Source: a virus
Taxonomy: Duplodnaviria; Heunggongvirae; Uroviricota; Caudoviricetes
Virus record (IMG/VR): IMGVR_UViG_3300028797_000097
Direction: 5' to 3' (one strand)
DNA length: 64,000 bases
The notes below the pieces were generated by a model. It had not been told where the DNA came from. It was given only the letters and a program-made list of their open reading frames with translations, and ran no database searches. This document shows positions 4,961 through 47,660 of the stretch, piece by piece. Positions within the stretch are counted from its first letter, which is position 1. Every line of letters starts with the position of its first letter. The position numbers and the translations under genes are program-made.

Positions 4961-5846
4961 TGAGGTCGTAGAATTAACTAAAGAACAAATGGATGAATAT
5001 GTAAAATGTTCTACAGATATTTTTTATTTTTCCAAATACTTTTATATTTTAAGTGATGAAGGTGAAGCGCCAATACATTTAAGAGAATACCAAGAACGTA
5101 TAGTTCGCTGTCTTGTTGGAAAATATTATGATAAAGAAGGTTCTATTAGAAATAATAGAATAATAATGCAAGGGCGACAGACAGGCAAGACTACTCTGGC
5201 CACATTATATATTTTATGGTATGCACTTTTTAATGGAGACAAAACTATCGCTGTTCTGGCTAACAAGGAAGACCAAGCAAAAGAAATTATGTTGAGAATT
5301 CGCTCAGCTATTTTGAAACTTCCACTTTGGTTACAACAAGGAATTAATCCTGATAGAGGTGGTTGGTCAAAAGAAAGTATCGGTTTTGATAACGGAACTA
5401 AGATATTCTGTGCTGCTTCTGGTTCTTCTGCTATTAGAGGTAAATCTGTTGACTTGATGCTTGTCGACGAATTTGCATTCTTGCCTGAAGAAGAAGCTAA
5501 GGACTTCATTAAGTCTGTTTTCCCTACCCAATCTGGTAGAAAGGATGCTATGATGATTCTTATTTCTACACCGCATGGTATGAATGAATTTTATAACATC
5601 TGGATGAAAGCTATTTCTGGTGCAAGTTCTTATGTTCCTGCAAAGATTCAATGGTATGAAATTCCTGGAAGAGATGAAGCTTGGAAGAAGAGAATGATTC
5701 GAGACTTCGGTATTCAGATGTTCCAACAGGAATATGCTTGTTTAACTGGAGAACATAAAATAACAGTTCGATCCGAGGAAGGAATCGAACTAACGGAACC
5801 GATTTCAAAACTATATGAACTTTGGATGGACGGTTTCTTAAGATAA
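4926..5846 (+). CDS. terL: Terminase large subunit, ATPase domain only (gp17-like N-terminal domain, 306 aa)
   Basis: Walker A QGRQTGKTT, Walker B DLMLVDEFAF, coupling motif ILISTPHG and the FQQEYACL motif match the T4 gp17 ATPase. The ORF stops where the RNase-H-like nuclease domain would start. Confidence 0.8.
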   Translation: MFQKTAELRGHNEVVELTKEQMDEYVKCSTDIFYFSKYFYILSDEGEAPIHLREYQERIVRCLVGKYYDKEGSIRNNRIIMQGRQTGKTTLATLYILWYALFNGDKTIAVLANKEDQAKEIMLRIRSAILKLPLWLQQGINPDRGGWSKESIGFDNGTKIFCAASGSSAIRGKSVDLMLVDEFAFLPEEEAKDFIKSVFPTQSGRKDAMMILISTPHGMNEFYNIWMKAISGASSYVPAKIQWYEIPGRDEAWKKRMIRDFGIQMFQQEYACLTGEHKITVRSEEGIELTEPISKLYELWMDGFLR

Positions 5847-5849
5847 AAA

Positions 5850-5880
5850 TAAAATCACCTTTAAAGGTGATTTTTTATTT
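5850..5880. terminator. Bidirectional rho-independent terminator shared by convergent genes
   Basis: Hairpin atcacc-tttaaa-ggtgat flanked by an A-run and a T-run. The minus-strand stop of gene 5875..6738 lies inside the T-run. Confidence 0.6.
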
Positions 5881-6738
5881 TCGTTTAAACGGATTTAATA
5901 ATTTTGTATATTCATTTTCAGGATAATCTATTGATTTATCAGTAGGTTGATCCTTATATTTTAAATTTTCTACACTATCTATTCTTGTTCTATTTAATTT
6001 TTCTTCCCATTCATCTAATGAACGATGATAATAATGGAACAATCTAATATCACAATTTGATACATTTATTTTTGCTTTTGGTCCTACAACTTTTGGTTCA
6101 AATGTTGTATTATTTGGTAGTGTTACAGGATAATTATTAATAAAATGTGGATATACAAATTTTATATGGTCCATAGTATTTTTTAAAAATCTATGAATAA
6201 ATGGTTTTACATCAACAAATGTTTCTTGATTATATTTTTCACTGACATACTTACAATCATCAATCATTGGTTTTTGTCTTGTTTTTGGTGTTTTAGATGA
6301 TTTATAAGAAATATTTGTTCTAGGAACACCAAATTGATAAATATCATTTTCATTTAATTTTTTTAAATAATCATTTATTGTTTTATATTTTGTTTTATCA
6401 AACCATAGATATTCGTCATCATCACAGAAAAATTGATATGTGTATTTATTATTTGTATTAACATATCTAGTATAATAATATTGTTGAACATTTAAAAATT
6501 TAGATTTATCATATAATAAAACAACATCTACTTTTTCATTATCTTTAAATTTTTCTTTTATATTACAACAATTACTTTCATTATCTACAATAATAATATG
6601 GTCAAATCCACACCAATTTAAATAGTGGTCAACCCATGAATCTATATCGCATTTTTTATATAATTTTGTTATTAATATAACTTCAGAAGAAATTGGTTTT
6701 GTTTTATATGGATTTTTCAATTCACTAGTTCTAAACAT
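5875..6738 (-). CDS. Putative GT-A fold glycosyltransferase
   Basis: HIIIVDNESN (GT2-like nucleotide-sugar binding motif) and an acidic FCDDDEYLW (DXD-like) motif. Confidence 0.35.
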   Translation of the reverse strand: MFRTSELKNPYKTKPISSEVILITKLYKKCDIDSWVDHYLNWCGFDHIIIVDNESNCCNIKEKFKDNEKVDVVLLYDKSKFLNVQQYYYTRYVNTNNKYTYQFFCDDDEYLWFDKTKYKTINDYLKKLNENDIYQFGVPRTNISYKSSKTPKTRQKPMIDDCKYVSEKYNQETFVDVKPFIHRFLKNTMDHIKFVYPHFINNYPVTLPNNTTFEPKVVGPKAKINVSNCDIRLFHYYHRSLDEWEEKLNRTRIDSVENLKYKDQPTDKSIDYPENEYTKLLNPFKRK

Positions 6739-12889: not shown

Positions 12890-13200
12890 ATATTTTTTAC
12901 ATTAAAGTCCTATTACTGGCTCGGAGTTCAACTCAATGAATTGTCGGATAAGTTTAGGCTAGTTGGAATCATAGGTGTGGTTCCAGGTAAAAACTAATTC
13001 ACCATCGACGTATTACTATAGCATGTAATACTTTAAGCCGCCATTGGTATTGAAAGATGTAGCTGGAGTACAGGATGACCGACCCATAAGCTTTCAAATA
13101 AATCCACTTAGTCGAAGACAGATGATCTTTTGCCTATTTTCCTAAATAGGCTTATTGTCTCAGAACAGATATTTTGAACGTGTGTGTAGATAAGTTTAAT
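12890..13200. other. ORF-free region of about 300 bp with visibly elevated GC and several hairpins. Candidate structured RNA (sRNA, tRNA-like or intron remnant).
   Basis: No ORF of 60 aa or more. The region reads as GC-richer than its surroundings (estimated about 45% against a genome-typical 32%). It contains a perfect 8-bp stem gcctattt/aaataggc and a ggtg...cacc hairpin. Confidence 0.25.
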
Positions 13201-24787: not shown

Positions 24788-24795
24788 TATAAATA
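24788..24795 (+). promoter_or_regulatory. T4-type late promoter TATAAATA, 4 nt before ATG 24800, preceded by a terminator hairpin
   Basis: Exact motif. Upstream hairpin agagaagat/atcttctct. Confidence 0.45.
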
Positions 24796-24799
24796 ATGT

Positions 24800-25948
24800 A
24801 TGGCAGTTAATGAAGATAAAAAATTATCAGATTATGAACTAAAGACTTTGAGAGAGCTTCAACAGTCTAGCAATACAGCATATGTTCCAGCATTTACTGA
24901 AACAGAAAACTATAAATTTGATTCTAAAGAATTAAATGGACAAGTTTTACAGGCTGGAACTAATGTAACTATTGATAATAATAACGTAATTCGTGCTACA
25001 GATACAAAATTAAAAAGTAGTGATAATATTTCTGTTACATCAGATAATAAATTAGTATATACTGGTCCTCAAGGAGAAGGAACAGATCTTGAAGAAGATA
25101 GTACAAATTTATCAATTGGAAGACAATCAGATGGTAAATATAAAGTAAATCTTAATCTTGGCTATGGTTCAGAAGTAGCACAAGTTCATAGCGGTGCAAC
25201 AACTTATAATTGTACTTCTACATTTTTTACTTCTTCAGATGGCGGTAAATCAATAAAAGGTAATTTTGCAGGATTTGTAAATAATGCCATAACATTTGGT
25301 AGAGACCCAAATGAAGGTAATGTTCCAAATAGTAACCTTAATCTTGTTATTAGTGAAGATATTTCTGTGCAATATTGGAATGGTGGTTCAACAGATAGAT
25401 GGATTTTAGCTACTCCAGATGATGTATTATCATTTAAAAAAGTAAATGGAACATATCCACCTTATGCAAGTCGTGTTCGTGGTGATTATTATTCTCAGCT
25501 TATTTTTAATATGCCAAATATTGCTGCATTAACTTTACATACATGGTGGCTTCAACATGTAACTCATAGAGAGAATATTTTTGTTCAAGTTAATATGGGT
25601 GAAAGAATGCATGCATTATATATTTTTAATGGTATTGGCGATGATAATGAAGGTGCAAATTTTTATTTCTATCATAATGGATTAGTATATAAAAAAGAAA
25701 ATGTAAGTAAAGGAACTTTTGTTAATATTGCTAATATAGTTAACTGGAAATTATATACTGATTTATCTGGGTATGGAATTGAAAATGGTGCAGGCAACTC
25801 AAGACTAGTTAATTCATTACCTTTTACAACAAACACTAGAGGTGATGGTCAGGATGAATGGCTGATTTGCACAGTTCAAAGATTTTATTGTATACATGAA
25901 ACAGTTAATAATAAACATAATTATTATTTTATTGAATCTATGTATTAA
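24800..25948 (+). CDS. Tail fibre / receptor-binding-like protein, paralog 1
   Basis: Shares an N-terminal module (AGTNVTIDNNNVIRATDT...DNISVTSDNKLVYTG) with the next two genes and with the long fibre at 53190. The C-terminus is variable. Confidence 0.5.
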   Translation: MAVNEDKKLSDYELKTLRELQQSSNTAYVPAFTETENYKFDSKELNGQVLQAGTNVTIDNNNVIRATDTKLKSSDNISVTSDNKLVYTGPQGEGTDLEEDSTNLSIGRQSDGKYKVNLNLGYGSEVAQVHSGATTYNCTSTFFTSSDGGKSIKGNFAGFVNNAITFGRDPNEGNVPNSNLNLVISEDISVQYWNGGSTDRWILATPDDVLSFKKVNGTYPPYASRVRGDYYSQLIFNMPNIAALTLHTWWLQHVTHRENIFVQVNMGERMHALYIFNGIGDDNEGANFYFYHNGLVYKKENVSKGTFVNIANIVNWKLYTDLSGYGIENGAGNSRLVNSLPFTTNTRGDGQDEWLICTVQRFYCIHETVNNKHNYYFIESMY

Positions 25949-25957
25949 TGAGGATTT

Positions 25958-27091
25958 ATGGGAAAAATTAAAAGAAAGAAATTGTCATCATTTGAAACTA
26001 AAACACTATCTGAATTAAAAGAAATGGATGATAGAGGTAATAGCGTTTATATCCCATATATTCAACCTATTGACAATAACTATAAGCATGAAATTTCAGA
26101 ATGTGCAGAAAAATTAACTGCTGGTGAAAATATTCAGATAACTAACGAAGGGAGAGTAAACGCTACTGACACCCGTTATGTTGCTGGCGATAATATTGAA
26201 ATTAGTTCTGATGGAAAAGTGTCTTATGTAGGTGATGCTCCACAAACATATGCAACAGGAAGAGGATTAAGATTAACAAATAATACTAATATTTTAGCAT
26301 TAAACCTAGAAACAGATGGTGGGTCAACGTTTACATCGCAATATGGTTCAAAATTATCGCCTGTTACATTTAAAAATAATTACACATTAGAATTAGCTGG
26401 AAATGCAATGGATTCACTTTTTGTTCAAGTTGCAGATAGTGATAGAACCGACGGTTATAAAGTAATATGTTTAGATAATGATGGAATTACATTAAGAACT
26501 TCTTTAACTGCTACTGATACTAAAAAATATTATTGCACAAATGGTACTACTCGTGCTTGGTATAAATCCGCACAACAACCGTCAGGATATACAAAAATAA
26601 GAACATCTGATTATACTCATTTTGCTATTGATGTAGGAAATATTGGTCTATTATCAATGTCTGCTTTATTTTTACAAAGTCATAATAATAGAGAAACAAT
26701 TATTAATATGTTAAATAGAACAAGTGATAAAGAACCTGATTTAATACTTGTAAATGATACGTCATATAAGGCTGATGCATTTATATATGAACAAGGTTTA
26801 TTATCAGGTGCTACTAATATAAGTTTAAATACATCATCTGCAAATTATGCAACTATTGCAAAATTTGAAAACTCACAAAATAAATGGGTATCGTCATTTA
26901 CTCCTAATTATTATATTAAGACTGATGGAACGACACGTGTTGCATTACCGCCATTTTGTGGAAATGTTTTATCAATGGTAAATGGTAGTACATATACTGG
27001 CTTATTTTCTACACTTAGATTTATTCCAGCTGTTTCACTAGATACAACAAATTCAAAAACAACTATATCAATGGTATCAATGGAGTATTAA
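25958..27091 (+). CDS. Tail fibre / receptor-binding-like protein, paralog 2
   Basis: AGENIQITNEGRVNATDTRYVAGDNIEISSDGKVSYVGD. Divergent C-terminus. Confidence 0.5.
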   Translation: MGKIKRKKLSSFETKTLSELKEMDDRGNSVYIPYIQPIDNNYKHEISECAEKLTAGENIQITNEGRVNATDTRYVAGDNIEISSDGKVSYVGDAPQTYATGRGLRLTNNTNILALNLETDGGSTFTSQYGSKLSPVTFKNNYTLELAGNAMDSLFVQVADSDRTDGYKVICLDNDGITLRTSLTATDTKKYYCTNGTTRAWYKSAQQPSGYTKIRTSDYTHFAIDVGNIGLLSMSALFLQSHNNRETIINMLNRTSDKEPDLILVNDTSYKADAFIYEQGLLSGATNISLNTSSANYATIAKFENSQNKWVSSFTPNYYIKTDGTTRVALPPFCGNVLSMVNGSTYTGLFSTLRFIPAVSLDTTNSKTTISMVSMEY

Positions 27092-27094
27092 ATT

Positions 27095-28633
27095 ATGGCA
27101 GGATGGAAACAAAATAATAAAAATGAATTAGTAAAATTAAATAGTTATAGTAAAACTGATACTACGGATGCCGAGATACCTGTTGTTATTCCAGATGCAG
27201 GTAAAAATGCAAGATTTAAAGTTACTGATTTAGCTCCTGTATATAAAGATGATGAAAATAATTGTCTTAAAATCGAAGATGGTGTTATTTCTAAAACAGA
27301 CACAACATATCAGTCAGGTGATGATGTTATAAAAGTTAATACTGTTGGTAATGAAAATATTATTAGTTGTGATGGTTTTGGTGGTAAAAAATATGTTGCA
27401 GGAACAGCAATCCAAGTAACTGAAACTACTAATACTACCACTAATAAAGCAACATTTTCAACGCTTAAATCCTCAGAAGATAAATTGATGGGTAATATCC
27501 AAACCTATCAAAAACATCAACCTACTTACAGAAAAAATAGTAAAACAGAATTTGCTGGTTTTGCCAATTTATATGGTGTTATTGGAGACCCATGGTGGTC
27601 AGAATCATCACCAAATTCATATACAACAATTGCTAGAATTTCTGGTGGCAGAATTCATTGTTATAATAGTCAAATACAAGAAAAAACATATTATATAAAT
27701 GGTGATACTTCATCAGATGGATTATATAAATTTAATCAATATGCAATACATATGGCACGTGTTGGTGGTATATATGTAGATTATGCTTTTTTAACAAATC
27801 ATTTTAATCGTGAATTATATATTTCAAGAACATATACTCAATTTGATGCTAATCAAGGATCAAATTATGGTTGTAAATTTTATATAACAGAAAATTCTGG
27901 AAGTACTCGTAGACTTAGAGTTATAATTTATTCATGCGGTTATATTTGTGAAGGTTATTCAACTTCAAGCAATCCAGAAATTTGTTTACAAGATATTTGT
28001 TATTGGAATTGGTCTAATGGCCAAAATGGAAATAGTTTTAATTATATATTAAGACCAATAGATTCTTCATATAAGTTAAGAGATTATGGTTATAATGCAG
28101 TTTCTGTTCCAATAGAAAATGATGGCGGTGGACATGCTTTTATTACTGGAGGGATATGGCAGCTTGATAAATATTATGATTCAAATAATATACCATGTAC
28201 AGTAATGAATGATACATGGACAGAATTTGACTATACATGGTCATATAGTCAAACTGTTGGTTGGCGGCCTCAAATAGTACCAGGAACAGGTGTATCATAT
28301 AGCGCGCCAAAAACTATAACACAATATTCTAATTTTTATAAAACAGCAGATCCTCGTTATAATTATTGGCAAACAGCAAATAAAATTAGAACAAAATATT
28401 GTTATAATACAGATGTTGCAACAATAATGACCCTATCTCCTGATAATGCAAATTATGGTAAATATTCAACAATTTTACATGAAGGTGAAGTTCATAGAAA
28501 TTTTAATGAAGTATGTCCAATCTCATATGATGAATATTTTTCTAGTTTTAAATTTATGGTTAATGGATATGGCGTAACAACAGTAAATGGTAAAGATTAT
28601 GATACTGTTTATTTAGTTGATATGAGAAACTAA
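27095..28633 (+). CDS. Tail fibre / receptor-binding-like protein, paralog 3
   Basis: N-terminal module DGVISKTDTTYQSGDDVIKVNTVGNENIISCDG. Trp/Tyr-rich C-terminal domain. Confidence 0.45.
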   Translation: MAGWKQNNKNELVKLNSYSKTDTTDAEIPVVIPDAGKNARFKVTDLAPVYKDDENNCLKIEDGVISKTDTTYQSGDDVIKVNTVGNENIISCDGFGGKKYVAGTAIQVTETTNTTTNKATFSTLKSSEDKLMGNIQTYQKHQPTYRKNSKTEFAGFANLYGVIGDPWWSESSPNSYTTIARISGGRIHCYNSQIQEKTYYINGDTSSDGLYKFNQYAIHMARVGGIYVDYAFLTNHFNRELYISRTYTQFDANQGSNYGCKFYITENSGSTRRLRVIIYSCGYICEGYSTSSNPEICLQDICYWNWSNGQNGNSFNYILRPIDSSYKLRDYGYNAVSVPIENDGGGHAFITGGIWQLDKYYDSNNIPCTVMNDTWTEFDYTWSYSQTVGWRPQIVPGTGVSYSAPKTITQYSNFYKTADPRYNYWQTANKIRTKYCYNTDVATIMTLSPDNANYGKYSTILHEGEVHRNFNEVCPISYDEYFSSFKFMVNGYGVTTVNGKDYDTVYLVDMRN

Positions 28634-29313
28634 TGAATATAGTAGTAATTAATAAAAATCAAGAAGATAAAATTAATTTAATTGAAGACAAGATACATGA
28701 GTTTAATCATGTATTTTGTTTTGATAGATATAAACCAGATACAACAGTTCCAGCTGTTTATAATACAGAAGGAACTGGATTCTTGGCAGGTAAATGTAGA
28801 GACATCGGTGCAGCATATTTTGACTATAAAGGAGATTTCTTATTTCTTGATGGCGATAAAGTTCCAGAAGGCGATTTGAATATTATTCCTGAAATCGGTG
28901 CTGCCTGTGTTTTACTCGGTGTTGGTAAAAATGATCATCGTCAATTTATGCAGCAAGAAAATATAACGAAAGAATATAATTGGGATGAAGGTTTCGATTG
29001 TAAAAATCCGTTAAATTTTGTATATAGTTGTGGTATTTATCTTTCTCAGAAAGCAGTAGACTTAATGAGGAAAATAAACGGCGGTAGGATATTTCATCCT
29101 TGTTTTGATGGAACTTGGGGTGATGAAGACCGTTGGATTGGTGATGTTTTAGGTTTTTATAAAATTCCGATTTTTTATACTACAAAGGTAACACTGTCTG
29201 GACATATTACTTCTACTAGAGATGACCCGATGTCAGAAAAAGCACAGAATTTACACATAAACATGATAAAACGAATTCATTTGAGACAGGAAAAGTTGGG
29301 ATTACAGTTCTAA
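28633..29313 (+). CDS. GT-A fold glycosyltransferase (DXD plus WGxED motifs)
   Basis: FLFLDGDK and TWGDEDRWIGDVLG. Confidence 0.45.
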   Translation: MNIVVINKNQEDKINLIEDKIHEFNHVFCFDRYKPDTTVPAVYNTEGTGFLAGKCRDIGAAYFDYKGDFLFLDGDKVPEGDLNIIPEIGAACVLLGVGKNDHRQFMQQENITKEYNWDEGFDCKNPLNFVYSCGIYLSQKAVDLMRKINGGRIFHPCFDGTWGDEDRWIGDVLGFYKIPIFYTTKVTLSGHITSTRDDPMSEKAQNLHINMIKRIHLRQEKLGLQF

Positions 29314-30637: not shown

Positions 30638-30662
30638 TATATCGTTTCAGACAACATTAAAT

Positions 30663-30699
30663 AAAAAGGGTTGACGGCAGTCACCCTTTTTGCTATATT
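30663..30699 (+). promoter_or_regulatory. Terminator hairpin overlapping a canonical sigma70 promoter TTGACG-N17-TATATT
   Basis: Stem gggt(t)gac/gtcaccc with a T-run. The -35 is at 30671-30676 and the -10 at 30694-30699. It drives the NfeD-like/flotillin pair. Confidence 0.6.
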
Positions 30700-30726
30700 T
30701 AGGAAAAACTTACAAGGAGATATAAA

Positions 30727-31218
30727 ATGATAGTAATCGCTTGGACGATTGTTGGTTTAACTGCACTTTTCATTATCTGCAGCTGCATAAAGAGTTGCGT
30801 CAGAATGGCAACAATGGAACGCTTTAAAAACGTTCCCATTCAGACACCTACCTTAATTGCAGATAAGAATAAGATTATTCAGTCATTATTTGATGATGAC
30901 GCTGAAAAGTTTTTCAAATATAAAGGTATAACATTCTGGTATTATAAGGATTCAAAGGATTACTTTGAAAAGCAGAGTTTTAGTGTTGCTGATGTAAAGA
31001 ATAAGATTGCACAGAAGTATGATGAACTCAAACAAGAACATCCAGGAATTACAGATTTTTTTGTTTCCATGACAAAACAAAATAATTATTTGACATGGGA
31101 ATTTGATCCGATTGACTTAAACTCTTATGTTCCGCCAAAGTCAACTAAGGATATTTGTATCGATGAGCTTAACAAATTAATAGAAAACAATGAAATAAAG
31201 GAAAAACATGACATCTAA
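30727..31218 (+). CDS. NfeD/YuaF-like membrane protein partner of flotillin
   Basis: N-terminal TM helix followed by a soluble domain of about 130 aa. It is immediately upstream of and overlapping the flotillin gene, as in the host yuaF-floT / yqiJ-yqiK operons. Confidence 0.4.
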   Translation: MIVIAWTIVGLTALFIICSCIKSCVRMATMERFKNVPIQTPTLIADKNKIIQSLFDDDAEKFFKYKGITFWYYKDSKDYFEKQSFSVADVKNKIAQKYDELKQEHPGITDFFVSMTKQNNYLTWEFDPIDLNSYVPPKSTKDICIDELNKLIENNEIKEKHDI

Positions 31219-32806
31219 TATGATCTACCCAATACTTATCGGAATTGCAGTAATTGCTTTAAGTATTCTCTTTTTTGCGTCTTATATCAAAGCCGCACCA
31301 GATGAAGTTAAAATCATCTCTGGTTTCCGACAACTAAGGACAATTATCGGACATTCAGGATTTAGAATTCCGTTCCTTGAGCAAGTCGATACTTTAAGCT
31401 TAAAGCTTATTCCAATCGATGTTAAGACCTCCGGTATTCCAACGTCAGATTATATTAATATCGCAGTTGATGCAGTCGTTCAGGTCAAAATTTCTGATGA
31501 AACTGCTGATATTAAGGTTGCTGCACAGAACTTCTTAAATAAGAATCCAGATGAAATTAAGAAGATGATTAGTGAAGTTCTTGAAGCAAACATGAGAGAG
31601 ATTGTTGGTCAAATGGAACTTGTCAAGCTTGTTAATGACAGACAACAGGTTTCTAAGAAGGTTCTCGAAAATGCTTCTCCAGACTTAAAGAAACTCGGTA
31701 TTGTTATTCAAACATTTAATATTCAGAACTTCTCTGATTCAGCAAAGGTTATTGAAAACCTCGGTGTTGACAAGGCAGTTGCAATTCAGAAAGCAGCAGC
31801 AATTTCTAGGGCCAATGCAGAAAGAGACGTTAAGATTGCTCAGGCAGAAGCAGCTAAGGAAGCAAACGATGCACAGGTTGCATCTAACCTCGAAATCGCA
31901 CAGAAGCAAAACGACTTAGAAGTTAAGAAGGCTGACCTTAAGAGAATTTCCGATAGCAAGAAGGCTGAAGCTGATGCCGCTTACGAAATTCAGAAGCAAG
32001 AACAGCAAAAGACCATTAACATTGCAGCTGCAGCAGCTGAAGTTGCAAAGCAGGAAAAACAGATTGAAATTCGTGAAAGAATGGTAGCTGTTAGACAGAA
32101 GGAACTCGAAGCTGAAATCCAGAAGAAGGCAGAAGCAGAAAAGCAAGCACAAATTCAGAAGTCTGATGCTGACCTTTATAGACAACAGAAGGAAGCTGAA
32201 GCAGCACTCTTCACACAGAAGCAACAGGCTGAAGCTATTAAGGCTAAGGCTGAAGCTGATAAGCAAAAAGCATTCGCTGAAGCTGCAGCAACTAAGGCTA
32301 AGGGTGAAGCAGAAGCTGATGCTGTAAAGGCTAAGGGTCTTGCAGAAGCAGCAGCACTTGACCAGAAGGCTGAAGCTATGAAGAAGTATGGTGATGCAGC
32401 AAGACAGGAAATGCAGCTCAGAACTATTGAAAAGTATTTCGAACAGTTACCAGCTATTGCAAGTGCCGTTGCAAAACCGATGGAAAAGATTGGCAATATC
32501 AATATGTATGGTGAAAGCGGTACAGCTAAGCTCACTGGCGATATTACCAAGACACTTACACAAGTTTCTAGTGGTTTAACTGATTCTCTTGGTATTGATC
32601 TTAAGACTGTTCTCGGTTCTATGTTCGGTGCACATCTTGCTGGACTCGAAAAGAAACCGTCGCAGGTCCCTGTTGAAGTTGCAAAGAACGATCCAGCAGT
32701 TCCAGCTACCCCAGCTCAGGCTACTCCAGTAGAATCTCCGGTTCAAATGTCTGAATCTGATATTGAACAGGCAGCAGCAGCATTTCTTAGAAAGCGTAAG
32801 CACTAA
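31208..32806 (+). CDS. Flotillin-like SPFH protein (FloT/YqiK-like, 532 aa)
   Basis: N-terminal TM segment, SPFH domain and a long A/E/K-rich flotillin-type coiled-coil (AEAEKQAQIQK...KAEADKQKAFAEAAATKAKGEAEADAVKAKG). Confidence 0.85.
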   Translation: MTSNMIYPILIGIAVIALSILFFASYIKAAPDEVKIISGFRQLRTIIGHSGFRIPFLEQVDTLSLKLIPIDVKTSGIPTSDYINIAVDAVVQVKISDETADIKVAAQNFLNKNPDEIKKMISEVLEANMREIVGQMELVKLVNDRQQVSKKVLENASPDLKKLGIVIQTFNIQNFSDSAKVIENLGVDKAVAIQKAAAISRANAERDVKIAQAEAAKEANDAQVASNLEIAQKQNDLEVKKADLKRISDSKKAEADAAYEIQKQEQQKTINIAAAAAEVAKQEKQIEIRERMVAVRQKELEAEIQKKAEAEKQAQIQKSDADLYRQQKEAEAALFTQKQQAEAIKAKAEADKQKAFAEAAATKAKGEAEADAVKAKGLAEAAALDQKAEAMKKYGDAARQEMQLRTIEKYFEQLPAIASAVAKPMEKIGNINMYGESGTAKLTGDITKTLTQVSSGLTDSLGIDLKTVLGSMFGAHLAGLEKKPSQVPVEVAKNDPAVPATPAQATPVESPVQMSESDIEQAAAAFLRKRKH

Positions 32807-32919
32807 TAAGAAATAGATTAAATAAAAAGATCAGACTTATGTCTGGTCTTTTTGTTGTATTTTTAAAAAATTAAAATATTTTTACATTTAATAAATAAGA
32901 AAATAGAAAAATACTATAT

Positions 32920-39059: not shown

Positions 39060-39089
39060 TTTAAAACAATAATATTACAATAAAAAGGG

Positions 39090-39118
39090 TTGACAAAAGT
39101 CAGCTCTTTTTCTATATT
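39090..39118 (+). promoter_or_regulatory. Canonical sigma70 promoter TTGACA-N17-TATATT upstream of the cadherin-like gene
   Basis: -35 at 39090-39095 and -10 at 39113-39118. Near-identical context to the promoter at 30671 (aaaaagggTTGAC...tttttCTATATTT). Confidence 0.6.
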
Positions 39119-39177: not shown

Positions 39178-42100
39178 ATGAAAAAGATAATCGGAATATT
39201 ATTAGTTTTAGCTGCATTTGTTTTTTCTGCAGACTATAAGCCGTTTAACTTTGAAACTATCCCACAAGATTCTGCAAGTCAACAGGATCAATTTGATTAT
39301 ATGCTTCAATATAAGTTATATGGTCATGATTTTATCAAAATGGGAAATGATGTTCGTATTCCAGACAAGTCAGGTTGGAATGGTACTGTAGGTAATATTA
39401 CTTCTAATGCAAGATTGACCTTGGGCGGTCCGATTCTTGCAAATGGTAGTATTTCTATGGGTGATGGTCCAAATAATATTACTGGACCAGTTCGCTCAGT
39501 CGATTTTGATCTTGGAAATGTAAATAATTCCAAAATCGCAAGCCCTGTTTGCTTAAGCGGAACCGCAAATGCTAATGCATTGTCTGCGATTGAAGATCAT
39601 AAGACTTATTCTTTCGATGCAAACATTTGTAAGGACAGCGTTCCTGCTGCACCTACAAATCTTTATATGCCGATTGTTGATTGGGATAATCTTGGTGCTG
39701 ATGTTAAGTTGGATGATATTGTTTTAAGTGGCAATGATGCTACAGATACTATTTTTGTTCCTAAAGGTGAAGGCGCATATAAGATTTTAATTGATAAGAT
39801 TCAGTTTGGCCTTGGCGGAACTAATGCAAGCCATTTGTATGTTAAGATGCAAGATGGCGGTAGATTGACCCAGATTTTCGTAAAGAATTTTATTTATGGA
39901 AATCATGCTACAATTCAGGTTGTTTATGATACTGACAGTGGAAGCGTAGTATTGAATCAGGACCAATATCGTGGTAACTTGATGTTCTATTCTAATAATG
40001 TTATCAGTTTTGATAATATGGACTATGCTCCTATTCAAGGTTCATTTATTTCTACTGATTCAATTTTCTTGGGAAGAAACGTTAATATTTCTGGTCAGTT
40101 ATTGACTAATAAGCTTGAAATTGGAAATGATATTGATGGTAAAAACTTCAGATTTGTTAAATTCGACCCTGATACAATCGATGTTAAGCTTGATAAGTAT
40201 GGTGGTTTGAGAGAAAATGATTCTACTGTTATTATTCCTATTGAACTAAGTGATACTGCTACTATCGCTGTATATTTTAGATATTGTTTTGATTTGAAAG
40301 ATGGTGTAACTGTTGAAGATTTTAATATTCCGCCTACATTCCCTATTTGTAACATCGATCAACCGAAAGAAGTATCTATTCCTATCGGTTCAAAGATTCC
40401 AAGTGATCCAATTAAGGTAAATGTTAAAGTCGATACATTGACAGAAAATGAATATCTTGTAATTAAGATTGATAGCATTTCTGGTGCTATTCTTCCTGAT
40501 GGTAAGACTGAAGGAGAATTAAAGATTAAGATTATTGACGCTCCTATTGGACATGTTGAATTTGATACTACAAAGACATATGAGTTTGAGGAAAATAAAC
40601 TTGGTGAAGTAGATGTAATCAAGATTTTAAATGGAACTGAAAATACTCGTTTCCATCTTGATAGTGCATATACTGATAGATATGAATTGGATAGCTTGAC
40701 TGGTAAGTTGACACTTATTGGTGAACCATTAGATTATGAAAAGGCTGCAATCGATGTTATTAAGGTTACATTGACTGATACTGGCAATGTAAGTGTAACT
40801 CGTAATATTCCTATTACAGTAATTGACGTTAATGAAGCACCTACTATCGATGATGTAACTGCTAATCTTCCGGAAAATCTTATTCATCCATTCATGGTTG
40901 AAAAGTTAGTTGCAAAAGATCCAGATACTAAGACAACATTTACTCAAAATGTTTTCAGTATGCTTGAAGGTGATACAAGCTTATTTAGAGTAGATTCTGA
41001 TGGTGAAATTTGGGCAAAGAAGACATTTGACTATGAAACTGATCAGAAAACCTATACTTTGAAGGTTTTGGTTCATGATAAGACTAATCCAGCATTGAAG
41101 GATAGTGCTATTGTTACTGTTAATATCACAAACAGCAATGATGGTCCTAAGTTTGACAGAAATGATACTACATTCCATGTAAATGAAAATGAACCATTTA
41201 AGGATAGTGTAAAGGCAACTGACCAGGATGGTGATAAGATTACTTATTCTATCATTGGAAGTGTTCCATTCAAAATTGATTCTACTGGCGTAATTACTTC
41301 TACTAGAACATTTGACTATGAAAAAGAAAAAGAATTTACATTCAAGGTCATTGCTGATGATGGTAAAGCAAAAGATACAATGACTGTAAATATTATAGTA
41401 GACAATGTAAATGAGCCTGTTCATACCAAAGATACAACTTTTGTTGTAGATGAAGGTAAAACTGGTGAAATCGGTAAAGTCAAAGGAGAAGATGAAGATG
41501 GAAAGCCTGTTAAATTTTCTTGCGATGATAGTGTGCATTACAGCATCGATACTAATACTGGTATTCTTAGACTGGTAGACCCATTTGACTATGAGATTAC
41601 AAAATCTGATACCATAAAGGTATTTGTTACTGATAGTCTATTTACAGATACTGCCATAGTTATTATTAATGTTAATAATGTAAATGAACCTCCTGTATTA
41701 CAGCCAAATGATTCTCTTACAGTTCCAGAAAATTGTAAGAATTGTATTGTTGGTATTATTACAGCAGTTGACCCTGACAGTGATAAGGTAATTTACGAAG
41801 TTAAGGAACCTGGTTTCACAATCGATACAAATGGAGTATTAAAGCTCACTGATCCTCTTGATTATGAGAAAACTCCAGAAGTTAAGATTACAGTTATTGC
41901 AAAGGATTCTAGTGGCGCAGCTGATACTGCCACCTATATAATTAAGATAACTGATATTAATGAACCAGTCCATGTTCAAGATACAACTTGTTCTGTAAAG
42001 GAAAATTATACTGGTAAGGTTTGCAAGATTACAGCAACTGATGAAGATAAAACAACTCCTAAATATATAATTACCGATACTACAAATTATTCTATCGATT

Positions 42101-43986
42101 CTACTGGTGTAATTACTATTAAGAACCCGATTGATTATGAAAAGAAGACTAAGGACACAGTAACTGTTATTGTAACTGATGACGAATTTTCTGATACCGC
42201 ACAGGTAATTATCAGAGTTCTCGATGAACCTGAAAAGGTTGAAATTACCACATGGGATGATGAAAAGCCTAAAGATACAGTAAAGACAAATGACCCAGAT
42301 CATAAGTTCGAATGGGAACTTTGTGAAGGTGATAGCTGTATTAAGCATGAAGAATTTCCGCATATCAAGAAAGATACAACTATCAAGGTATGTAATGATA
42401 AGAAGACTGTTTGTGATTCAGTTGTAGTTTTATTCAATGATGCACCTCCAGTTGTTACTTTGACAAATGCAAAGTCTACTGATGCATTGATTGACTATAT
42501 TACAATCGAAGAACAGAAGGACGATAAGATTTATGTCAACAAGAAAGAAAATCCAATTACTGTAACTGTTAGAGATACTGTTCATAAGACAGAAAAGAAA
42601 TTTGATATTAAAGTTAAGCTTGATACAATTCCTACTAAGGATATTAAGATTAAGGAATATAACTACTTGATTGATGAATCTCTTGCAACTCATACAGCAA
42701 TAGGTAACAATCTTATTGAAGTTTCTGAAGTTATTTCTGTTGACGGTAATAAGATAACAATTTCTAAGATTGTTGATAAGAAGACAATGGAACCAATCGA
42801 TACAGTTCAAACTGTTACTTATCATAAGAAGGTTGGTGGTAAGGACGTAGTTGTTTCTTATAAGACTGATAATCTTACTGGTCAGAGAGTTTCTGATTAT
42901 GAAATTTCTTACATGGCTGATTCTTGCACTAAGGTTACATATACTGTAAATGATAAGAAGGAAATTGTTAAGAATAAGGAAGGAAATATTGCATATAATA
43001 TCACTTATGATTATGTAGATGATTTTGGTAACAAAGCATCTGCATCAGTTGAAATTATCTTCGACGATATTCCGCCTAAGGTTGAAATTCTTGGACCTGG
43101 TCCAATGGAACATTTCAATACAAATGCAATTCCAGTTAAGTGGACAGTTAATGGCGAAACACAAGATACTTTGACATTACAGAGACTTGAAAAAGGTGTT
43201 AACTATATTATCAGAAGATATGTAGATAAGGCTGGTAACGTCGCTGCTGATACAGTCACAGTTCTTATGAATGAAGCCAAGGATATTGATATTGAAATTA
43301 TCAATCCAGTAACCAAGGTTGACCAGGATAAAGTTGATGAATATTATTCTGAAGGTCATAAGTATAATGATAAGAAACCGTTTGACGTCAAGTTTGTTGA
43401 CCCGAAGAACGATACAATTCCAGATGTAATTGGTGTTGGTTTCAAGGTTGATATTGTACTTCCGTCTGTTTCTCCTACTGGTTCTCTTGCAACATTGGAT
43501 GACATTGTAAAGAATGGTCAGATTCCAGTTGATGATAAGGGAAATATCGTTGGTGCTTCTACAAAGGGAATTCCAGTAGATAAGTATGTTGAAGAACATT
43601 GTACTGAAGAATTCCAGAAGGATTACGATAAGTATGGTTTGAATATTCCGCTTTATGACGTTACTTATAAACTTCATCTTTGGGTATATACAACTACTGC
43701 AAACTATGTAAATGATTTTAATATTGAATTTACATTGAATGATGAAGCTAAGACTACTACAGCAGGAACTGTCCAGATGGTTATCGACTGGTTGTCTGAT
43801 AAGGATGGAAACGTCAAGGCTAAGAACCATCATGCTTTAGGAACAGGCGCATATATAACCAAGTTGTTCAGCACTTCTGTTGCAAAACACCGTTGTGATT
43901 ATAAGGATCAAGTTAAGGGTGATAGAACTGTAAAGAAGGATGAAACAATGAAAACATTTGGTTATAAGCGACCAAACAACAAGTAA
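39178..43986 (+). CDS. Giant secreted cadherin-repeat protein (1602 aa)
   Basis: Sec signal peptide MKKIIGILLVLAAFVFSADYK. Multiple repeats of about 100 aa ending in cadherin-type linkers (VIDVNEAPTI, NSNDGPKF, VDNVNEPVH, VNNVNEPPV, ITDINEPVH). Confidence 0.7.
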   Translation: MKKIIGILLVLAAFVFSADYKPFNFETIPQDSASQQDQFDYMLQYKLYGHDFIKMGNDVRIPDKSGWNGTVGNITSNARLTLGGPILANGSISMGDGPNNITGPVRSVDFDLGNVNNSKIASPVCLSGTANANALSAIEDHKTYSFDANICKDSVPAAPTNLYMPIVDWDNLGADVKLDDIVLSGNDATDTIFVPKGEGAYKILIDKIQFGLGGTNASHLYVKMQDGGRLTQIFVKNFIYGNHATIQVVYDTDSGSVVLNQDQYRGNLMFYSNNVISFDNMDYAPIQGSFISTDSIFLGRNVNISGQLLTNKLEIGNDIDGKNFRFVKFDPDTIDVKLDKYGGLRENDSTVIIPIELSDTATIAVYFRYCFDLKDGVTVEDFNIPPTFPICNIDQPKEVSIPIGSKIPSDPIKVNVKVDTLTENEYLVIKIDSISGAILPDGKTEGELKIKIIDAPIGHVEFDTTKTYEFEENKLGEVDVIKILNGTENTRFHLDSAYTDRYELDSLTGKLTLIGEPLDYEKAAIDVIKVTLTDTGNVSVTRNIPITVIDVNEAPTIDDVTANLPENLIHPFMVEKLVAKDPDTKTTFTQNVFSMLEGDTSLFRVDSDGEIWAKKTFDYETDQKTYTLKVLVHDKTNPALKDSAIVTVNITNSNDGPKFDRNDTTFHVNENEPFKDSVKATDQDGDKITYSIIGSVPFKIDSTGVITSTRTFDYEKEKEFTFKVIADDGKAKDTMTVNIIVDNVNEPVHTKDTTFVVDEGKTGEIGKVKGEDEDGKPVKFSCDDSVHYSIDTNTGILRLVDPFDYEITKSDTIKVFVTDSLFTDTAIVIINVNNVNEPPVLQPNDSLTVPENCKNCIVGIITAVDPDSDKVIYEVKEPGFTIDTNGVLKLTDPLDYEKTPEVKITVIAKDSSGAADTATYIIKITDINEPVHVQDTTCSVKENYTGKVCKITATDEDKTTPKYIITDTTNYSIDSTGVITIKNPIDYEKKTKDTVTVIVTDDEFSDTAQVIIRVLDEPEKVEITTWDDEKPKDTVKTNDPDHKFEWELCEGDSCIKHEEFPHIKKDTTIKVCNDKKTVCDSVVVLFNDAPPVVTLTNAKSTDALIDYITIEEQKDDKIYVNKKENPITVTVRDTVHKTEKKFDIKVKLDTIPTKDIKIKEYNYLIDESLATHTAIGNNLIEVSEVISVDGNKITISKIVDKKTMEPIDTVQTVTYHKKVGGKDVVVSYKTDNLTGQRVSDYEISYMADSCTKVTYTVNDKKEIVKNKEGNIAYNITYDYVDDFGNKASASVEIIFDDIPPKVEILGPGPMEHFNTNAIPVKWTVNGETQDTLTLQRLEKGVNYIIRRYVDKAGNVAADTVTVLMNEAKDIDIEIINPVTKVDQDKVDEYYSEGHKYNDKKPFDVKFVDPKNDTIPDVIGVGFKVDIVLPSVSPTGSLATLDDIVKNGQIPVDDKGNIVGASTKGIPVDKYVEEHCTEEFQKDYDKYGLNIPLYDVTYKLHLWVYTTTANYVNDFNIEFTLNDEAKTTTAGTVQMVIDWLSDKDGNVKAKNHHALGTGAYITKLFSTSVAKHRCDYKDQVKGDRTVKKDETMKTFGYKRPNNK

Positions 43987-45188: not shown

Positions 45189-47660
45189 ATGATTAAAAAC
45201 GTAATTAAGCGAGATAATCGCAGACGAAAATTCAACATTGCAAAAGTATATACAGCCATAGAAAATGCATTTAAATCAATAAATGAAAAATATACAGAAG
45301 AAGGTATAGACCAATTAGTTGATGAAGTAGTCGAGAAGATTTCCGCAAATGATGCCAAGTCAGCAAGAGTTGAAGATATTCAGAATGTTATTGAAAAGAC
45401 ATTGATGAATAGCGGATTCGGAACAGTTGCTAAGGCATTTATTTTATATAGAGACGAACGTAACCGTGCACGTGAAACAAAATCAGAAATTGTAAAGACC
45501 ATTAAGGAAATTACAGAGTCTGATATTAAAAGTTCGAATATTTTAAGAGACAATGCAAACGAATCTGGTGCTACTCCTGCTGGAACATACGGTAAGATTG
45601 CATCTGAAACGAATAAGATGTATAACCTGTTGAATAACATCAACAGAAAGTATGCACAGGAACATAAGGACGGACATTTACATATCCATGACCTTAACCA
45701 GTATAATTTGACATTCAACTGCTTGTTTGCTCCAGTTGGAAAGTTATTGAAGAACGGTTTTGACTCTGGAACTGGTTTCTTACGTTCCCCGAAGTCAATC
45801 CAGACTGCAGCAGCATTGACAGCAGTTATTCTTCAGCTCCAGTCCAACCAGCAATATGGTGGTATCGCTGATGATAATCTCGATTTTGATTTAGCACCGT
45901 TTGTCGATATTTCATTTAGAAAGAATCTTAAGGAAGAATTAGAAAGATATATAGAATATAATCCAGATCATGAAGAAATGACCAATCTTGATGAAGTTGC
46001 AACAGCTTCTATGAACTGGCCTTCTGCACTTCTTTATACTAAGTTCCCTAAGATTTGTGTTATTAAGGCAATTCAGAAGACAGATGATGATACACATCAG
46101 GCTATGGAAGGTCTTATTGGTAATTTGAATTCTTTACAGTCTCGTTCTGGAAACCAAGTTCCATTTAGTTCTTTGAACTTCGGTCTTAATACTTCTAATT
46201 GTGGTCGTATGATTAGCAAGAATCTTATTAAGTCTCAGATGGAAGGTCTCGGTGACGGATTGACAGCAATTTTCCCAATCTTGATTTTCAAGTTGATGGA
46301 AGGTTACACAAAGAATCCAGAAGATCCTAACTATGATTTGTATCTCGACTCTATTAAGTGTCTTGCTCGTAGATTCTACCCGAACTTTGTAAAGGTCGAT
46401 AGTTCCTTCAATAAGCCATACATCAAGTATGAAACTAAGGAAGTTGAAATTCTTGAAAATGTTATTGGTGTTAAGGTTCGTGGTAAAGATGAAGCAACAA
46501 TTATCCCAATGCAAGACCAGAAGTTTGATAAGTTTGTCTATCAGTATGATGTAGGTCAAGGTGACTATTGGGAAATTGAAGAAATTTCTGGAAATAAGTT
46601 GAAGTTGAAGAAACTCATTGAAAATACAACTATTTCTACTATGGGTTGTAGAACCAGAGTTATTGGTAATATCAATGGTGCTGAACAGACAACTGGTAGA
46701 GGTAACTTTGCATTCCATACAATTAACCTTCCTAGACTTGCTATTGAAGCTCATATCGCAGCAAAGGATGAAGAAGAACGTAAGACTATTTTCTTCGAAA
46801 AGCTTGCTGAAATGCTTGAAGATGCAAAGGGAAGTTTGCTTGACAGATTCGCATTGATTTCTAACAAGACATATGAGAATTTCCCATTTACTATGCAACA
46901 GGGTCTTTATCTCACATCTGATGACCAACCGCATGAAGTTACTGATAAGATTGGTGAAGTTCTTAAACAGGCTTCGTTGTCAATCGGTTACGTCGGTCTT
47001 GCTGAAACCATGTTACTCTTGACAGGTAAGACTTATGGTGTTGACCATGAAATTGATGATTATGCTTTCTCTATTGTAAAGACTATTCGTGAATTTGTTG
47101 ATAAGACACAGAAGGAAACTCATTTGAACTGGTCTTGTTTCGCTACTCCAGCTGAAGCAGTTGCAGGTCGTTTTGCTAACATCGATAAAAATCTTTTCCA
47201 GAATGAAAAGAAGCTTGCTGATGTAGATTTACAGAGAGTCTTCGGTAAGGGTTATTACACAAATAGCCACATGCTTGATTATTCTTTGGAAACTACTCTT
47301 GAAAACAAGATTAAGATGGAAGCTCCATATCACAAGATTACAAATGCTGGTCATATCTTCTATTACAAGTTGAATGGTGACTTGTCTAAGAATCTTGAAG
47401 CGGTCAAGGCAACTATTGATGCCATGTATGAAGGTGACCTTGGTTATTTCACTTGCACATTTGACAGTGATACTTGTACTAAGTGCCATTTCCATGGAAT
47501 CATCAATAATGAATGTCCATGTTGTGGTAACAAGAATGAAGACGAGATTATTCGTGTTAGAAGAATTACCGGATATTTGACTGGTTCTCCTAAGAAGACT
47601 ATTTTTAAGTCTTGGAATGATGGAAAATTAGCAGAATTGAGAGACCGTCATAATATTTAA
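45189..47660 (+). CDS. nrdD: Anaerobic ribonucleoside-triphosphate reductase NrdD (class III, glycyl-radical)
   Basis: ATP-cone N-terminus. C-terminal Zn ribbon CTKCHFHG...CPCCG and glycyl-radical motif RVRRITGYL. Confidence 0.9.
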   Translation: MIKNVIKRDNRRRKFNIAKVYTAIENAFKSINEKYTEEGIDQLVDEVVEKISANDAKSARVEDIQNVIEKTLMNSGFGTVAKAFILYRDERNRARETKSEIVKTIKEITESDIKSSNILRDNANESGATPAGTYGKIASETNKMYNLLNNINRKYAQEHKDGHLHIHDLNQYNLTFNCLFAPVGKLLKNGFDSGTGFLRSPKSIQTAAALTAVILQLQSNQQYGGIADDNLDFDLAPFVDISFRKNLKEELERYIEYNPDHEEMTNLDEVATASMNWPSALLYTKFPKICVIKAIQKTDDDTHQAMEGLIGNLNSLQSRSGNQVPFSSLNFGLNTSNCGRMISKNLIKSQMEGLGDGLTAIFPILIFKLMEGYTKNPEDPNYDLYLDSIKCLARRFYPNFVKVDSSFNKPYIKYETKEVEILENVIGVKVRGKDEATIIPMQDQKFDKFVYQYDVGQGDYWEIEEISGNKLKLKKLIENTTISTMGCRTRVIGNINGAEQTTGRGNFAFHTINLPRLAIEAHIAAKDEEERKTIFFEKLAEMLEDAKGSLLDRFALISNKTYENFPFTMQQGLYLTSDDQPHEVTDKIGEVLKQASLSIGYVGLAETMLLLTGKTYGVDHEIDDYAFSIVKTIREFVDKTQKETHLNWSCFATPAEAVAGRFANIDKNLFQNEKKLADVDLQRVFGKGYYTNSHMLDYSLETTLENKIKMEAPYHKITNAGHIFYYKLNGDLSKNLEAVKATIDAMYEGDLGYFTCTFDSDTCTKCHFHGIINNECPCCGNKNEDEIIRVRRITGYLTGSPKKTIFKSWNDGKLAELRDRHNI

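Follow-up and report, generated by a model that had tools for sequence, protein, structure and literature searches.

A two-gene module, consisting of a small membrane-protein gene (w163) and a flotillin gene, is carried by a T4-like phage genome in the 64,000-nucleotide (nt) stretch of the IMG/VR virus record IMGVR_UViG_3300028797_000097 that was analyzed here (hereafter, the window). Our results indicate that the flotillin, a protein of 532 amino acids (aa), is most closely related to chromosomal flotillins of Fibrobacter and has remained under constraint in phages, where most copies of two clades have gained a long basic tail. The protein encoded upstream appears to be unrelated to NfeD, and the pair seems to be expressed from a terminator/promoter cassette of its own, which is conserved in diverged relatives of the phage.

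The flotillin, its constraint and its relatives

Both genes lie on the plus strand, and their open reading frames (ORFs) share 11 nt (Table 1), exactly as the original prediction had claimed for an overlapping pair of a 163-aa protein with a single transmembrane segment (TM) and a 532-aa protein; a Kyte-Doolittle scan detected one N-terminal hydrophobic segment in each product. The ribosome-binding site of w163 stands 7 nt ahead of the ATG and is identical in a closely related contig, L001, in which the gene caller had taken a later start. The overlap, together with the location of the flotillin ribosome-binding site within w163, suggests that translation of the two genes is coupled. Minus-strand ORFs within the flotillin gene (116 aa, 124 aa and others) were judged, with no separate search, to be by-products of GCN/GAR-rich coiled-coil coding.

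The 532-aa protein was matched by the Pfam families Band_7 (PF01145; residues 31-205, 6.7e-23, 82.1 bits against a cut-off of 23.6 bits) and Flot (PF15975; residues 368-443, 1.5e-10, 41.6 bits against a cut-off of 27 bits), and its residues 28-466 aligned with human flotillin-1 (9l3g; E 1.3e-50). In the AlphaFold2 (AF2) model, a helix at residues 6-25, corresponding to the N-terminal anchor in the hydrophobic segment within residues 1-31, is followed by the SPFH domain, a helix of about 160 residues (189-347) and a helical C-terminal region. The predicted SPFH domain and EA-rich coiled coil were thus recovered by family profiles, structural alignment and model. Because the NCBIfam FloT model (NF058507) scored 252.7 bits (E 7.7e-75), far under its equivalog cut-off of 700 bits, the protein is by this measure a relative within the family and not a FloT orthologue.

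The ratio of nonsynonymous to synonymous substitution (dN/dS) among phage flotillin copies is 0.06-0.18, and the flotillin is 84% identical to that of contig L010, compared with 54-65% for the flanking replication genes. At 0.31, the GC content at third codon positions (GC3) falls inside the range of the phage (0.10-0.35) and away from that of Fibrobacter genes (0.52-0.86), and synonymous sites are saturated relative to the Fibrobacter flotillin (proportion of synonymous differences, pS, 0.84). The concern that the gene might be a degraded remnant is contradicted by its full length and low dN/dS, and the protein is a complete flotillin under purifying selection.

Among cellular homologues, the chromosomal flotillins of Fibrobacter come closest (65-71% identity), followed at 45-49% by those of Streptococcus, Treponema and a Bacteroidaceae metagenome-assembled genome (MAG). 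A Fibrobacter flotillin such as WP_088629361.1 (Fibrobacter sp. UWB16 cluster) resembles the phage protein over about 480 residues and has the same anchor, SPFH domain, EA-rich coiled coil and Flot region, but it is about 504 aa long, has a short tail and the high GC3 given above, and is flanked by HrpA, PanD-like and Fib_succ_major genes, with no w163 or LemA nearby. In a neighbor-joining tree with 200 bootstraps, the phage and Fibrobacter copies formed one family (100%), in which the Fibrobacter core and a group of pig-gut phages were each supported at 100%, and the order among clades received only 25-40% support (phage clade A, 25%; Fibrobacter with the pig-gut phage group, 29%). The phylogeny against host flotillins that had been suggested for dating the acquisition therefore places the phage genes in one family with Fibrobacter, and since its inner branches are poorly supported, we claim neither a number nor a direction of transfers. 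On composition, with GC3 ameliorated and synonymous sites saturated, the transfer event is old, and composition says no more than that.

A phage-specific feature of the family is its C-terminal tail. Counted after the conserved SMFGAxLAG motif, the tail measures 12-16 aa in Fibrobacter copies (n=25), 3-21 aa in other bacteria, a median of 63 aa in phage clade A (53 aa in the window), 82-87 aa in a basal phage clade and 3-8 aa in the pig-gut phage group. Long tails (50-87 aa) are found in most phage copies of the window clade and the basal clade and are absent from all Fibrobacter copies examined. Their linkers are rich in Pro/Ala/Glu/Lys and lead into a short helix, their ends are basic (RKRKH, RRRRR), and the AF2 model of the window protein shows disorder over residues 474-515 (predicted local distance difference test, pLDDT, ~33) before the helix at 516-531 (pLDDT 66-81). 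In solved structures, the C-termini of flotillins sit at the apex of the cage (PMC11260169, PMC13000311), and a phage cage would thus carry many such tails protruding at its top.

The flotillin is widespread in uncultured phages in differing contexts, including T4-like relatives of the window. It occurs with a T4 neck protein and RegA in the pig-gut T4-like group, with NrdD/NrdG, a Dda-like helicase, IF3 and a Fib_succ_major-domain protein on another contig, next to a CCA-adding enzyme that adjoins LemA and flotillin on contigs of 78 kb to 460 kb, and on an ArdC-bearing element. Genes for IF3, a RegA-type repressor, a CCA-adding enzyme and IS605 OrfB/TnpB (Cas12f-like) were also observed near flotillin at L098 7292-7981, L097 7077-7490, L096 3610-6191 and L005 6723-7973, and some of the flotillin-bearing contigs with these extra genes are 405-470 kb long.

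The upstream protein and the regulatory cassette

The original prediction had described the 163-aa protein as NfeD-like and the pair as a yuaF-floT / yqiJK-type operon. SPFH-associated NfeD proteins are about 140-150 aa long and have three hydrophobic stretches and an all-beta OB-fold domain (PMC2636767). The w163 protein has one hydrophobic stretch, kept across 20 homologues (TM at about residues 3-25), and its C-terminal domain is predicted to be alpha/beta and not an all-beta OB-fold of the PDB 2EXD type; in addition, PF01957 gave no match at E <= 10 in any of the 21 family members. Searches of NCBIfam, PHROGs and PADLOC with w163 returned no match, and a PDB profile search returned nothing at E <= 1. 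The family is tiny, with 43 clusters in a search of 5.8 billion sequences and nine representatives among 1.84 billion proteins. The overall confidence of the w163 model is moderate (pLDDT 69.9). We conclude that w163 belongs to a narrow, phage-only family, whose only NfeD-like trait is its position. Four K/R residues follow the TM and none precedes it, so the positive-inside rule predicts an N-out/C-in topology, in which the domain and the flotillin would both face the cytoplasm.

The operon label was not upheld either. In the Fibrobacter, Streptococcus and Treponema loci examined, no NfeD-like gene lies upstream of these nearest bacterial flotillins, which argues that the pair was not imported as a yuaF-floT/yqiJK operon. 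In the NfeD2-SPFH2 operons yuaF-floT of Bacillus subtilis and yqiJ-yqiK of Escherichia coli (PMC2636767), a small membrane-protein gene likewise stands directly upstream of an SPFH2 flotillin and is co-transcribed with it, as is predicted from the layout for the phage pair. The phage module differs in being virus-borne, in having an upstream protein with one TM and a predicted alpha/beta domain in place of three TMs and an OB-fold, and in the extra C-terminal tail of its flotillin. Similarly, Vibrio phage KIT04 (BBL19217.1) and phage csAssE-Sib (WOZ57345.1) encode Band_7 proteins, the latter with Flot, and have a small hydrophobic protein directly upstream, but these flotillins are only 27-28% identical to that of the window over SPFH, their upstream proteins are unrelated to w163, and the phages belong to other groups (T5-like Demerecviridae and a 151-kb gut phage, respectively). 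The 164-aa "transmembrane protein" before the csAssE-Sib flotillin (L107, OR575929.1, 2474-2968) has three hydrophobic stretches, a beta-rich C-terminus and no Pfam match, and on visual inspection it resembles a genuine NfeD/YqiJ-type partner; if so, NfeD-flotillin pairs exist in other phages.

The sequence ahead of w163 reads AAAAAGGGTTGACGGCAGTCACCCTTTTT-GCTATATT. Its first part forms a hairpin (RNA fold -15.2 kcal/mol, z = -4.1) that closes the upstream gene for a 428-aa protein (w428), and the 5' arm of this hairpin contains the -35 element of the best-scoring promoter-like site of the region (10/12), TTGACG-17 nt-TATATT with TG upstream of the -10. As a bare consensus match this site is not significant, since 22 such sites were seen and 20.6 expected, and significance from the consensus scan alone was therefore rejected; with the scan at chance level, the promoter claim rests on recurrence and conservation. 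The octamer CTATATTT, which covers the -10 element at 30693-30700, is present in nine copies in the window, all of them intergenic and co-oriented with the next gene. They precede, among others, the replication genes uvsW, uvsX, a gp41-like helicase gene and gp32, a primase-like gene and a gene for a 1602-aa cadherin-repeat protein (Table 1), and in five of the nine TTGACA or TTTACA lies 16-17 nt upstream. The composite GGTTGAC..TTTTnYTATATT was found twice (30669, 39088), with none expected by chance, and its second occurrence, in another terminator/promoter arrangement, indicates that the cassette is a class. Moreover, a hairpin with an embedded TTGAC, followed by TATATT, precedes the orthologous small gene in L010, L012, L015 and L102; the w163 proteins of these contigs are only 26-54% identical, yet the cassette is kept, and TTGAC is invariant in spite of changes in the 3' arm of the stem. 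This combination of octamer recurrence, a composite above chance and conservation in diverged phages argues for a conserved terminator/promoter cassette of the phage group with a dual role, its promoter activity being predicted.

On the downstream side, a second hairpin closes the two-gene unit (fold -20.2 kcal/mol, z = -9.1). The prediction that the pair has its own sigma70-type promoter within a terminator was sustained by folding, recurrence and conservation, and a terminator also brackets the pair downstream.

The expression class of the pair can be approached by comparison with T4, whose promoter classes provide the basis for a timing analogy. The T4 late-promoter motif TATAAATA has 27 matches in the window, compared with 14.6 +/- 4.0 expected, a number that was reached in none of 100 shuffles, and none of the 27 lies before w163 or flotillin. 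The CTATATTT sites look like a phage promoter class distinct from these T4-late-type sites. Their sharing with the replication genes, the absence of TATAAATA here and the T4 analogy suggest that w163 and flotillin may be expressed early via host sigma70. Against this, a recognizable -35 is missing at four of the nine CTATATTT sites, so their timing class stands as a T4 analogy only.

Table 1. Features of the flotillin module in the window and of related segments in other contigs
Feature	Position	Strand	Details
Intrinsic-terminator-like hairpin	30662..30692	+	A-run, GGGTTGAC / GTCACCC stem, GGCA loop, T-run
Sigma70-type promoter-like site	30671..30700	+	-35 TTGACG 30671-30676; 17-nt spacer with TG; -10 TATATT 30694-30699
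w163 ribosome-binding site	30714..30719	+	AAGGAG, read from sequence
w163 gene	30727..31218	+	163 aa; predicted bitopic membrane protein, phage-only family
Flotillin ribosome-binding site	31198..31203	+	AAGGAA inside w163 3' end, read from sequence
Flotillin gene	31208..32806	+	532 aa; SPFH2 / FloT-YqiK type
Flotillin parts (residues)	TM 6-25; SPFH 26-205; EA-rich helix 189-347; Flot C-terminal region 368-473; tail 480-532
Flotillin C-terminal extension	32645..32803	+	Pro/Ala/Glu-rich linker, terminal helix 516-531, basic end RKRKH
Intrinsic-terminator-like hairpin	32821..32856	+	16 pairs then T-run; closes two-gene unit
CTATATTT sites (window scan)	14053, 16013, 18675, 19974, 22461, 30693, 32914, 39112, 62764 (-)		Before uvsW (16013), uvsX (18675), gp41-like helicase (19974), gp32 (22461), w163-flotillin operon (30693), primase-like gene (32914), 1602-aa cadherin-repeat gene (39112)
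Second terminator/promoter cassette GGTTGACAAAAGTCAGCTCTTTTTCTATATT	39088..39118	+	Ahead of 1602-aa cadherin-repeat gene, outside operon
LemA + 246-263-aa segments of relatives	L012 4661-5958; L010 3287-4570; L018 2085-3913; L096 6211-7989

The phage genome, its host and variation of the module

T4-type hallmark genes lie on both flanks of the pair. Profile matches in the window include UvsW_N, T4_UVSX_C/RecA, a DnaB-like gp41 helicase, gp32, dUTPase_2, the T4-gp15 tail sheath stabilizer, NrdD and the N-terminal part of the T4-type large terminase (Terminase_6N), and the PHROG matches agree; by this gene content the genome is that of a T4-like phage. The claim that the pair is phage-borne in a T4-like genome was thus borne out, and the suspicion that the region might be host DNA flanking a prophage is contradicted by the phage genes on its flanks and by the phage-like GC3. 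Near-identical contigs were found in ruminant metagenomes and IMG/VR, which together with a cow-rumen-2 RNA (below) marks the genome as that of a rumen phage, and megablast found no similar GenBank phage at the DNA level, with only distant matches at the protein level.

Two of the related contigs, L016 (JAFRFB010000097.1, 172,971 bp) and L017 (JAFQXD010000042.1, 191,090 bp), encode flotillins 98% identical to that of the window, with flanking genes at 87-99%. Both were deposited within Methanobrevibacter MAGs, which speaks against a bacterial host and could mislead host assignment. This placement is most likely a binning error because the sites resemble bacterial sigma70 promoters and terminator hairpins, the hallmark genes are T4-type, the nearest flotillins are bacterial and the GC content of the phage is low (32.5%). 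The flotillin family link, together with a Fib_succ_major-domain gene on a flotillin-bearing phage contig, points to Fibrobacter as the probable host group. The same GC content, which is far from that of Fibrobacter, weighs against this host call, and within the window there are no tRNAs and the large proteins contain no Fibrobacter-specific domains.

The composition of the module varies among relatives. In L010, L012 and L015, whose flotillins are 80-84% identical to that of the window, the order is a w163-like gene, LemA (PF04011, 8.8e-28), a gene for a 246-aa protein with a TM at both ends, and flotillin, and in a higher-GC lineage (L018, L096) it is LemA, a 263-aa homologue, a 136-aa bactofilin-like repeat protein and flotillin. 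The 246-263-aa proteins carry a Cys-containing middle domain, and the 246-aa family comprises 34 clusters, all unannotated. These LemA cassettes share with the window a flotillin at 71-84% identity, the w163 family (in L010, L012 and L015) and the same promoter/terminator cassette, but the window has neither LemA nor the 246-aa gene in its 64 kb, and w163 abuts flotillin. In L099, which has a basal flotillin (62-65% identity), a w428 homologue and a 172-aa protein of the w163 family (profile E 6e-15) directly precede flotillin. Linkage of w163 and flotillin was therefore observed in three diverged lineages, namely the window, L012 (with LemA and the 246-aa gene between) and L099, which is only suggestive of a partnership.

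Loss of the flotillin gene weighs against an obligate partnership. In L102-L104, whose neighboring genes are 79-95% identical, w428 and a w163 of 54% identity are kept without flotillin, and the w163 stop codon is followed at once by the terminator that follows flotillin in the window, the homologous hairpin in L102 lying directly 3' of the w163 homologue. As these contigs cleanly lack flotillin yet keep w163, the flotillin is accessory and dispensable, and w163 does not strictly depend on it. Four genes at 24800-29313 (+) (382, 377, 512 and 226 aa), which have no family matches, GC3 down to 0.096 and TATAAATA at 24788, have no counterpart in L001, which is otherwise 98% identical and in which the 428-aa gene comes straight after the dUTPase gene. 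Their absence there marks the region around flotillin as a plastic indel hotspot.

Several other observations were made along the window. The T4-type terminase match is limited to an N-terminal 306-aa ORF (4926-5846, +), followed by an opposite-strand ORF (5875-6738, -), and the terminase gene may be split or interrupted. NrdD (45189-47660, +) was matched by Pfam and PHROG models in two stretches (about residues 3-408 and 476-822), and the gap of about 70 residues may be an insertion. The 1602-aa protein (39178-43986, +) contains multiple cadherin and Big_9 repeats, has homologous giants in L001 and the pig-gut phage L097, and is possibly an adhesin or fiber. In addition, a full-length Rfam cow-rumen-2 RNA (RF02947), an orphan metagenomic small RNA motif, was found at 13004-13110 (+) with 102.8 bits against a gathering score of 66 bits (E 1e-18); since it is intergenic here in a T4-like phage, the motif may be phage-borne.

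Possible functions and significance

We give about even chances to the proposal that the pair forms an accessory membrane module, which would keep the membrane of the infected cell organized and intact through protein stabilization, fluidity or integrity, and would raise phage yield under some conditions. The pair would be transcribed early by unmodified host RNA polymerase via the CTATATTT/-35 class shared with uvsW, uvsX, the gp41-like gene and gp32, and w163 and flotillin would be translated in a coupled manner. The flotillin would then insert by its N-terminal anchor and, like solved flotillin and SPFH assemblies, would form oligomeric SPFH cages or microdomains at the inner membrane of the host, on its cytoplasmic side; phage-specific contacts of these scaffolds may come from the polybasic tail and from the w163 domain in the cytoplasm. 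Known flotillins act in membrane organization, protein stabilization and the handling of envelope stress (PMC11222466, PMC8581546), and the cage architecture of flotillin/SPFH assemblies has been described (PMC11260169, PMC13000311). In particular, the phage protein can be aligned end to end with human flotillin-1, a subunit with flotillin-2 of a 44-mer cage (PDB 9l3g, 9bq2; PMC13000311, PMC11260169), and all cage-building parts are therefore present. The human cage differs in being a hetero-oligomer with acylation and a hairpin anchor and without a polybasic tail, whereas the phage flotillin has a predicted N-terminal TM-like anchor. Several points weigh against the proposal. Conflict genes, such as those for exclusion or anti-defence, just as typically come and go in plastic regions; flotillin is dispensable, and w163 is kept without it in L102-L104; the host call, the moderate confidence of the w163 model and the CTATATTT sites that lack a -35, all described above, also count against it; and the function was deduced from sequence, model and homology.

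T4 encodes the early membrane proteins Imm and Sp, and an analogous role in superinfection exclusion or inter-phage competition is a possible, although unlikely, alternative for the module. Here, an early membrane module (w163 and flotillin, with LemA and the two-TM protein in relatives) would alter the inner membrane and block the entry of DNA from later phages. The predicted early promoter class, the membrane nature of all module products, the differing presence among close relatives in a plastic region, and the spread of flotillin, in differing contexts, over many phage lineages that co-occur in rumen and gut would all fit such a role. However, no homology to known exclusion proteins was found, a literature search found no exclusion system that uses a flotillin, and the strong constraint on the flotillin (84%, against 54-65% for its neighbors) is unlike that of fast-evolving conflict genes.

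A role in counter-defence appears rather doubtful. Phage flotillin scaffolds would in this case stabilize or repair the inner membrane against depolarizing abortive-infection effectors or premature holin action, keeping the cell alive until progeny are complete. It has been reported that, in B. subtilis, PspA-type membrane repair is connected to the membrane through SPFH proteins (PMC8581546) and that the membrane-remodelling protein DynA changes lysis after phage infection (PMC8844932), and an accessory, predicted early flotillin would be compatible with such a function. Against it, no defence or anti-defence family was matched, with PADLOC giving for the flotillin only the weak coiled-coil model PDC-M03A (16.5 bits, E 7.7e-4), which is not significant, and nothing ties the presence of flotillin to particular host defence systems. 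Counter-defence also overlaps the membrane-integrity proposal, from which it differs only in the selective agent.

We regard as improbable two further readings, both of which draw on the tail. In the first, host takeover by co-assembly, the phage flotillin would mix into host cages as a dominant-negative or hijacking subunit, with the tail disrupting or re-purposing them. The high identity to the host-type flotillin (65-71%) extends across the oligomerization regions, the distribution of the tail separates the two phage clades from the Fibrobacter copies examined, and solved structures have the C-termini at the cage apex, all of which would suit mixed cages. Such assemblies are nevertheless hypothetical, the host assignment is itself indirect, and the pig-gut T4-like flotillins lack the tail, which is thus not universal. 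Sequence does not separate exclusion, counter-defence and co-assembly from one another. In the second reading, held with similarly little confidence, a host-type flotillin would have been converted into a virus-specific membrane organizer, with dozens of tails at the apex of every cage. Composed of a flexible linker followed by an amphipathic helix and an oligo-Arg end, these tails would hold phage nucleic acid, complexes for replication or assembly, or another membrane surface at defined inner-membrane microdomains, with w163 (and LemA and the two-TM protein in relatives) as clients supplied by the phage. If this were true, it would amount to a viral "raft" system in bacteria, present in several rumen and gut phage lineages.

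That the gene is a neutral passenger without phage function, recently captured from a host or introduced as mis-assembled host DNA, is highly improbable: its absence from close relatives and the origin of its nearest cellular homologues in one rumen genus would be compatible with this, but selection and composition contradict it (low dN/dS, fully ameliorated GC3 and synonymous sites saturated against Fibrobacter), and the same gene occupies the same position on many independent contigs from different samples, has a phage-specific, conserved tail and possesses its own conserved regulatory cassette.

Flotillin-family genes had already been annotated in phage genomes, as in KIT04 and csAssE-Sib, and the SPFH gene of another phage has been remarked on with the comment that "the reason ... 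remains unclear" (PMC13239085). Our literature search found annotation remarks only, with no functional study of phage-encoded flotillins and no SPFH protein in defence systems. What is new here is the Fibrobacter-linked flotillin family across several rumen and gut phage lineages, its non-NfeD partner and the LemA/two-TM cassette, the polybasic tail and the terminator/promoter cassette. The analysis also corrects an annotation trap, as the small TM gene that precedes a flotillin need not encode NfeD, and flags phage contigs that are probably mis-binned in Methanobrevibacter MAGs.

Fibrobacter is a key fiber degrader of the rumen, and we know of no well-studied lytic phages of this genus; our results point to it as the probable host group for many uncultured T4-like and larger phages. 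What bacterial flotillins do is itself debated, with a microdomain scaffold, a modulator of fluidity and an ATP-independent holdase having been proposed. Given the strong constraint on the phage flotillin, its new tail, the replacement of the NfeD partner by unrelated membrane proteins and its clean loss in some relatives, phage flotillins offer a natural experiment on the contribution of a flotillin to an acutely stressed cell.

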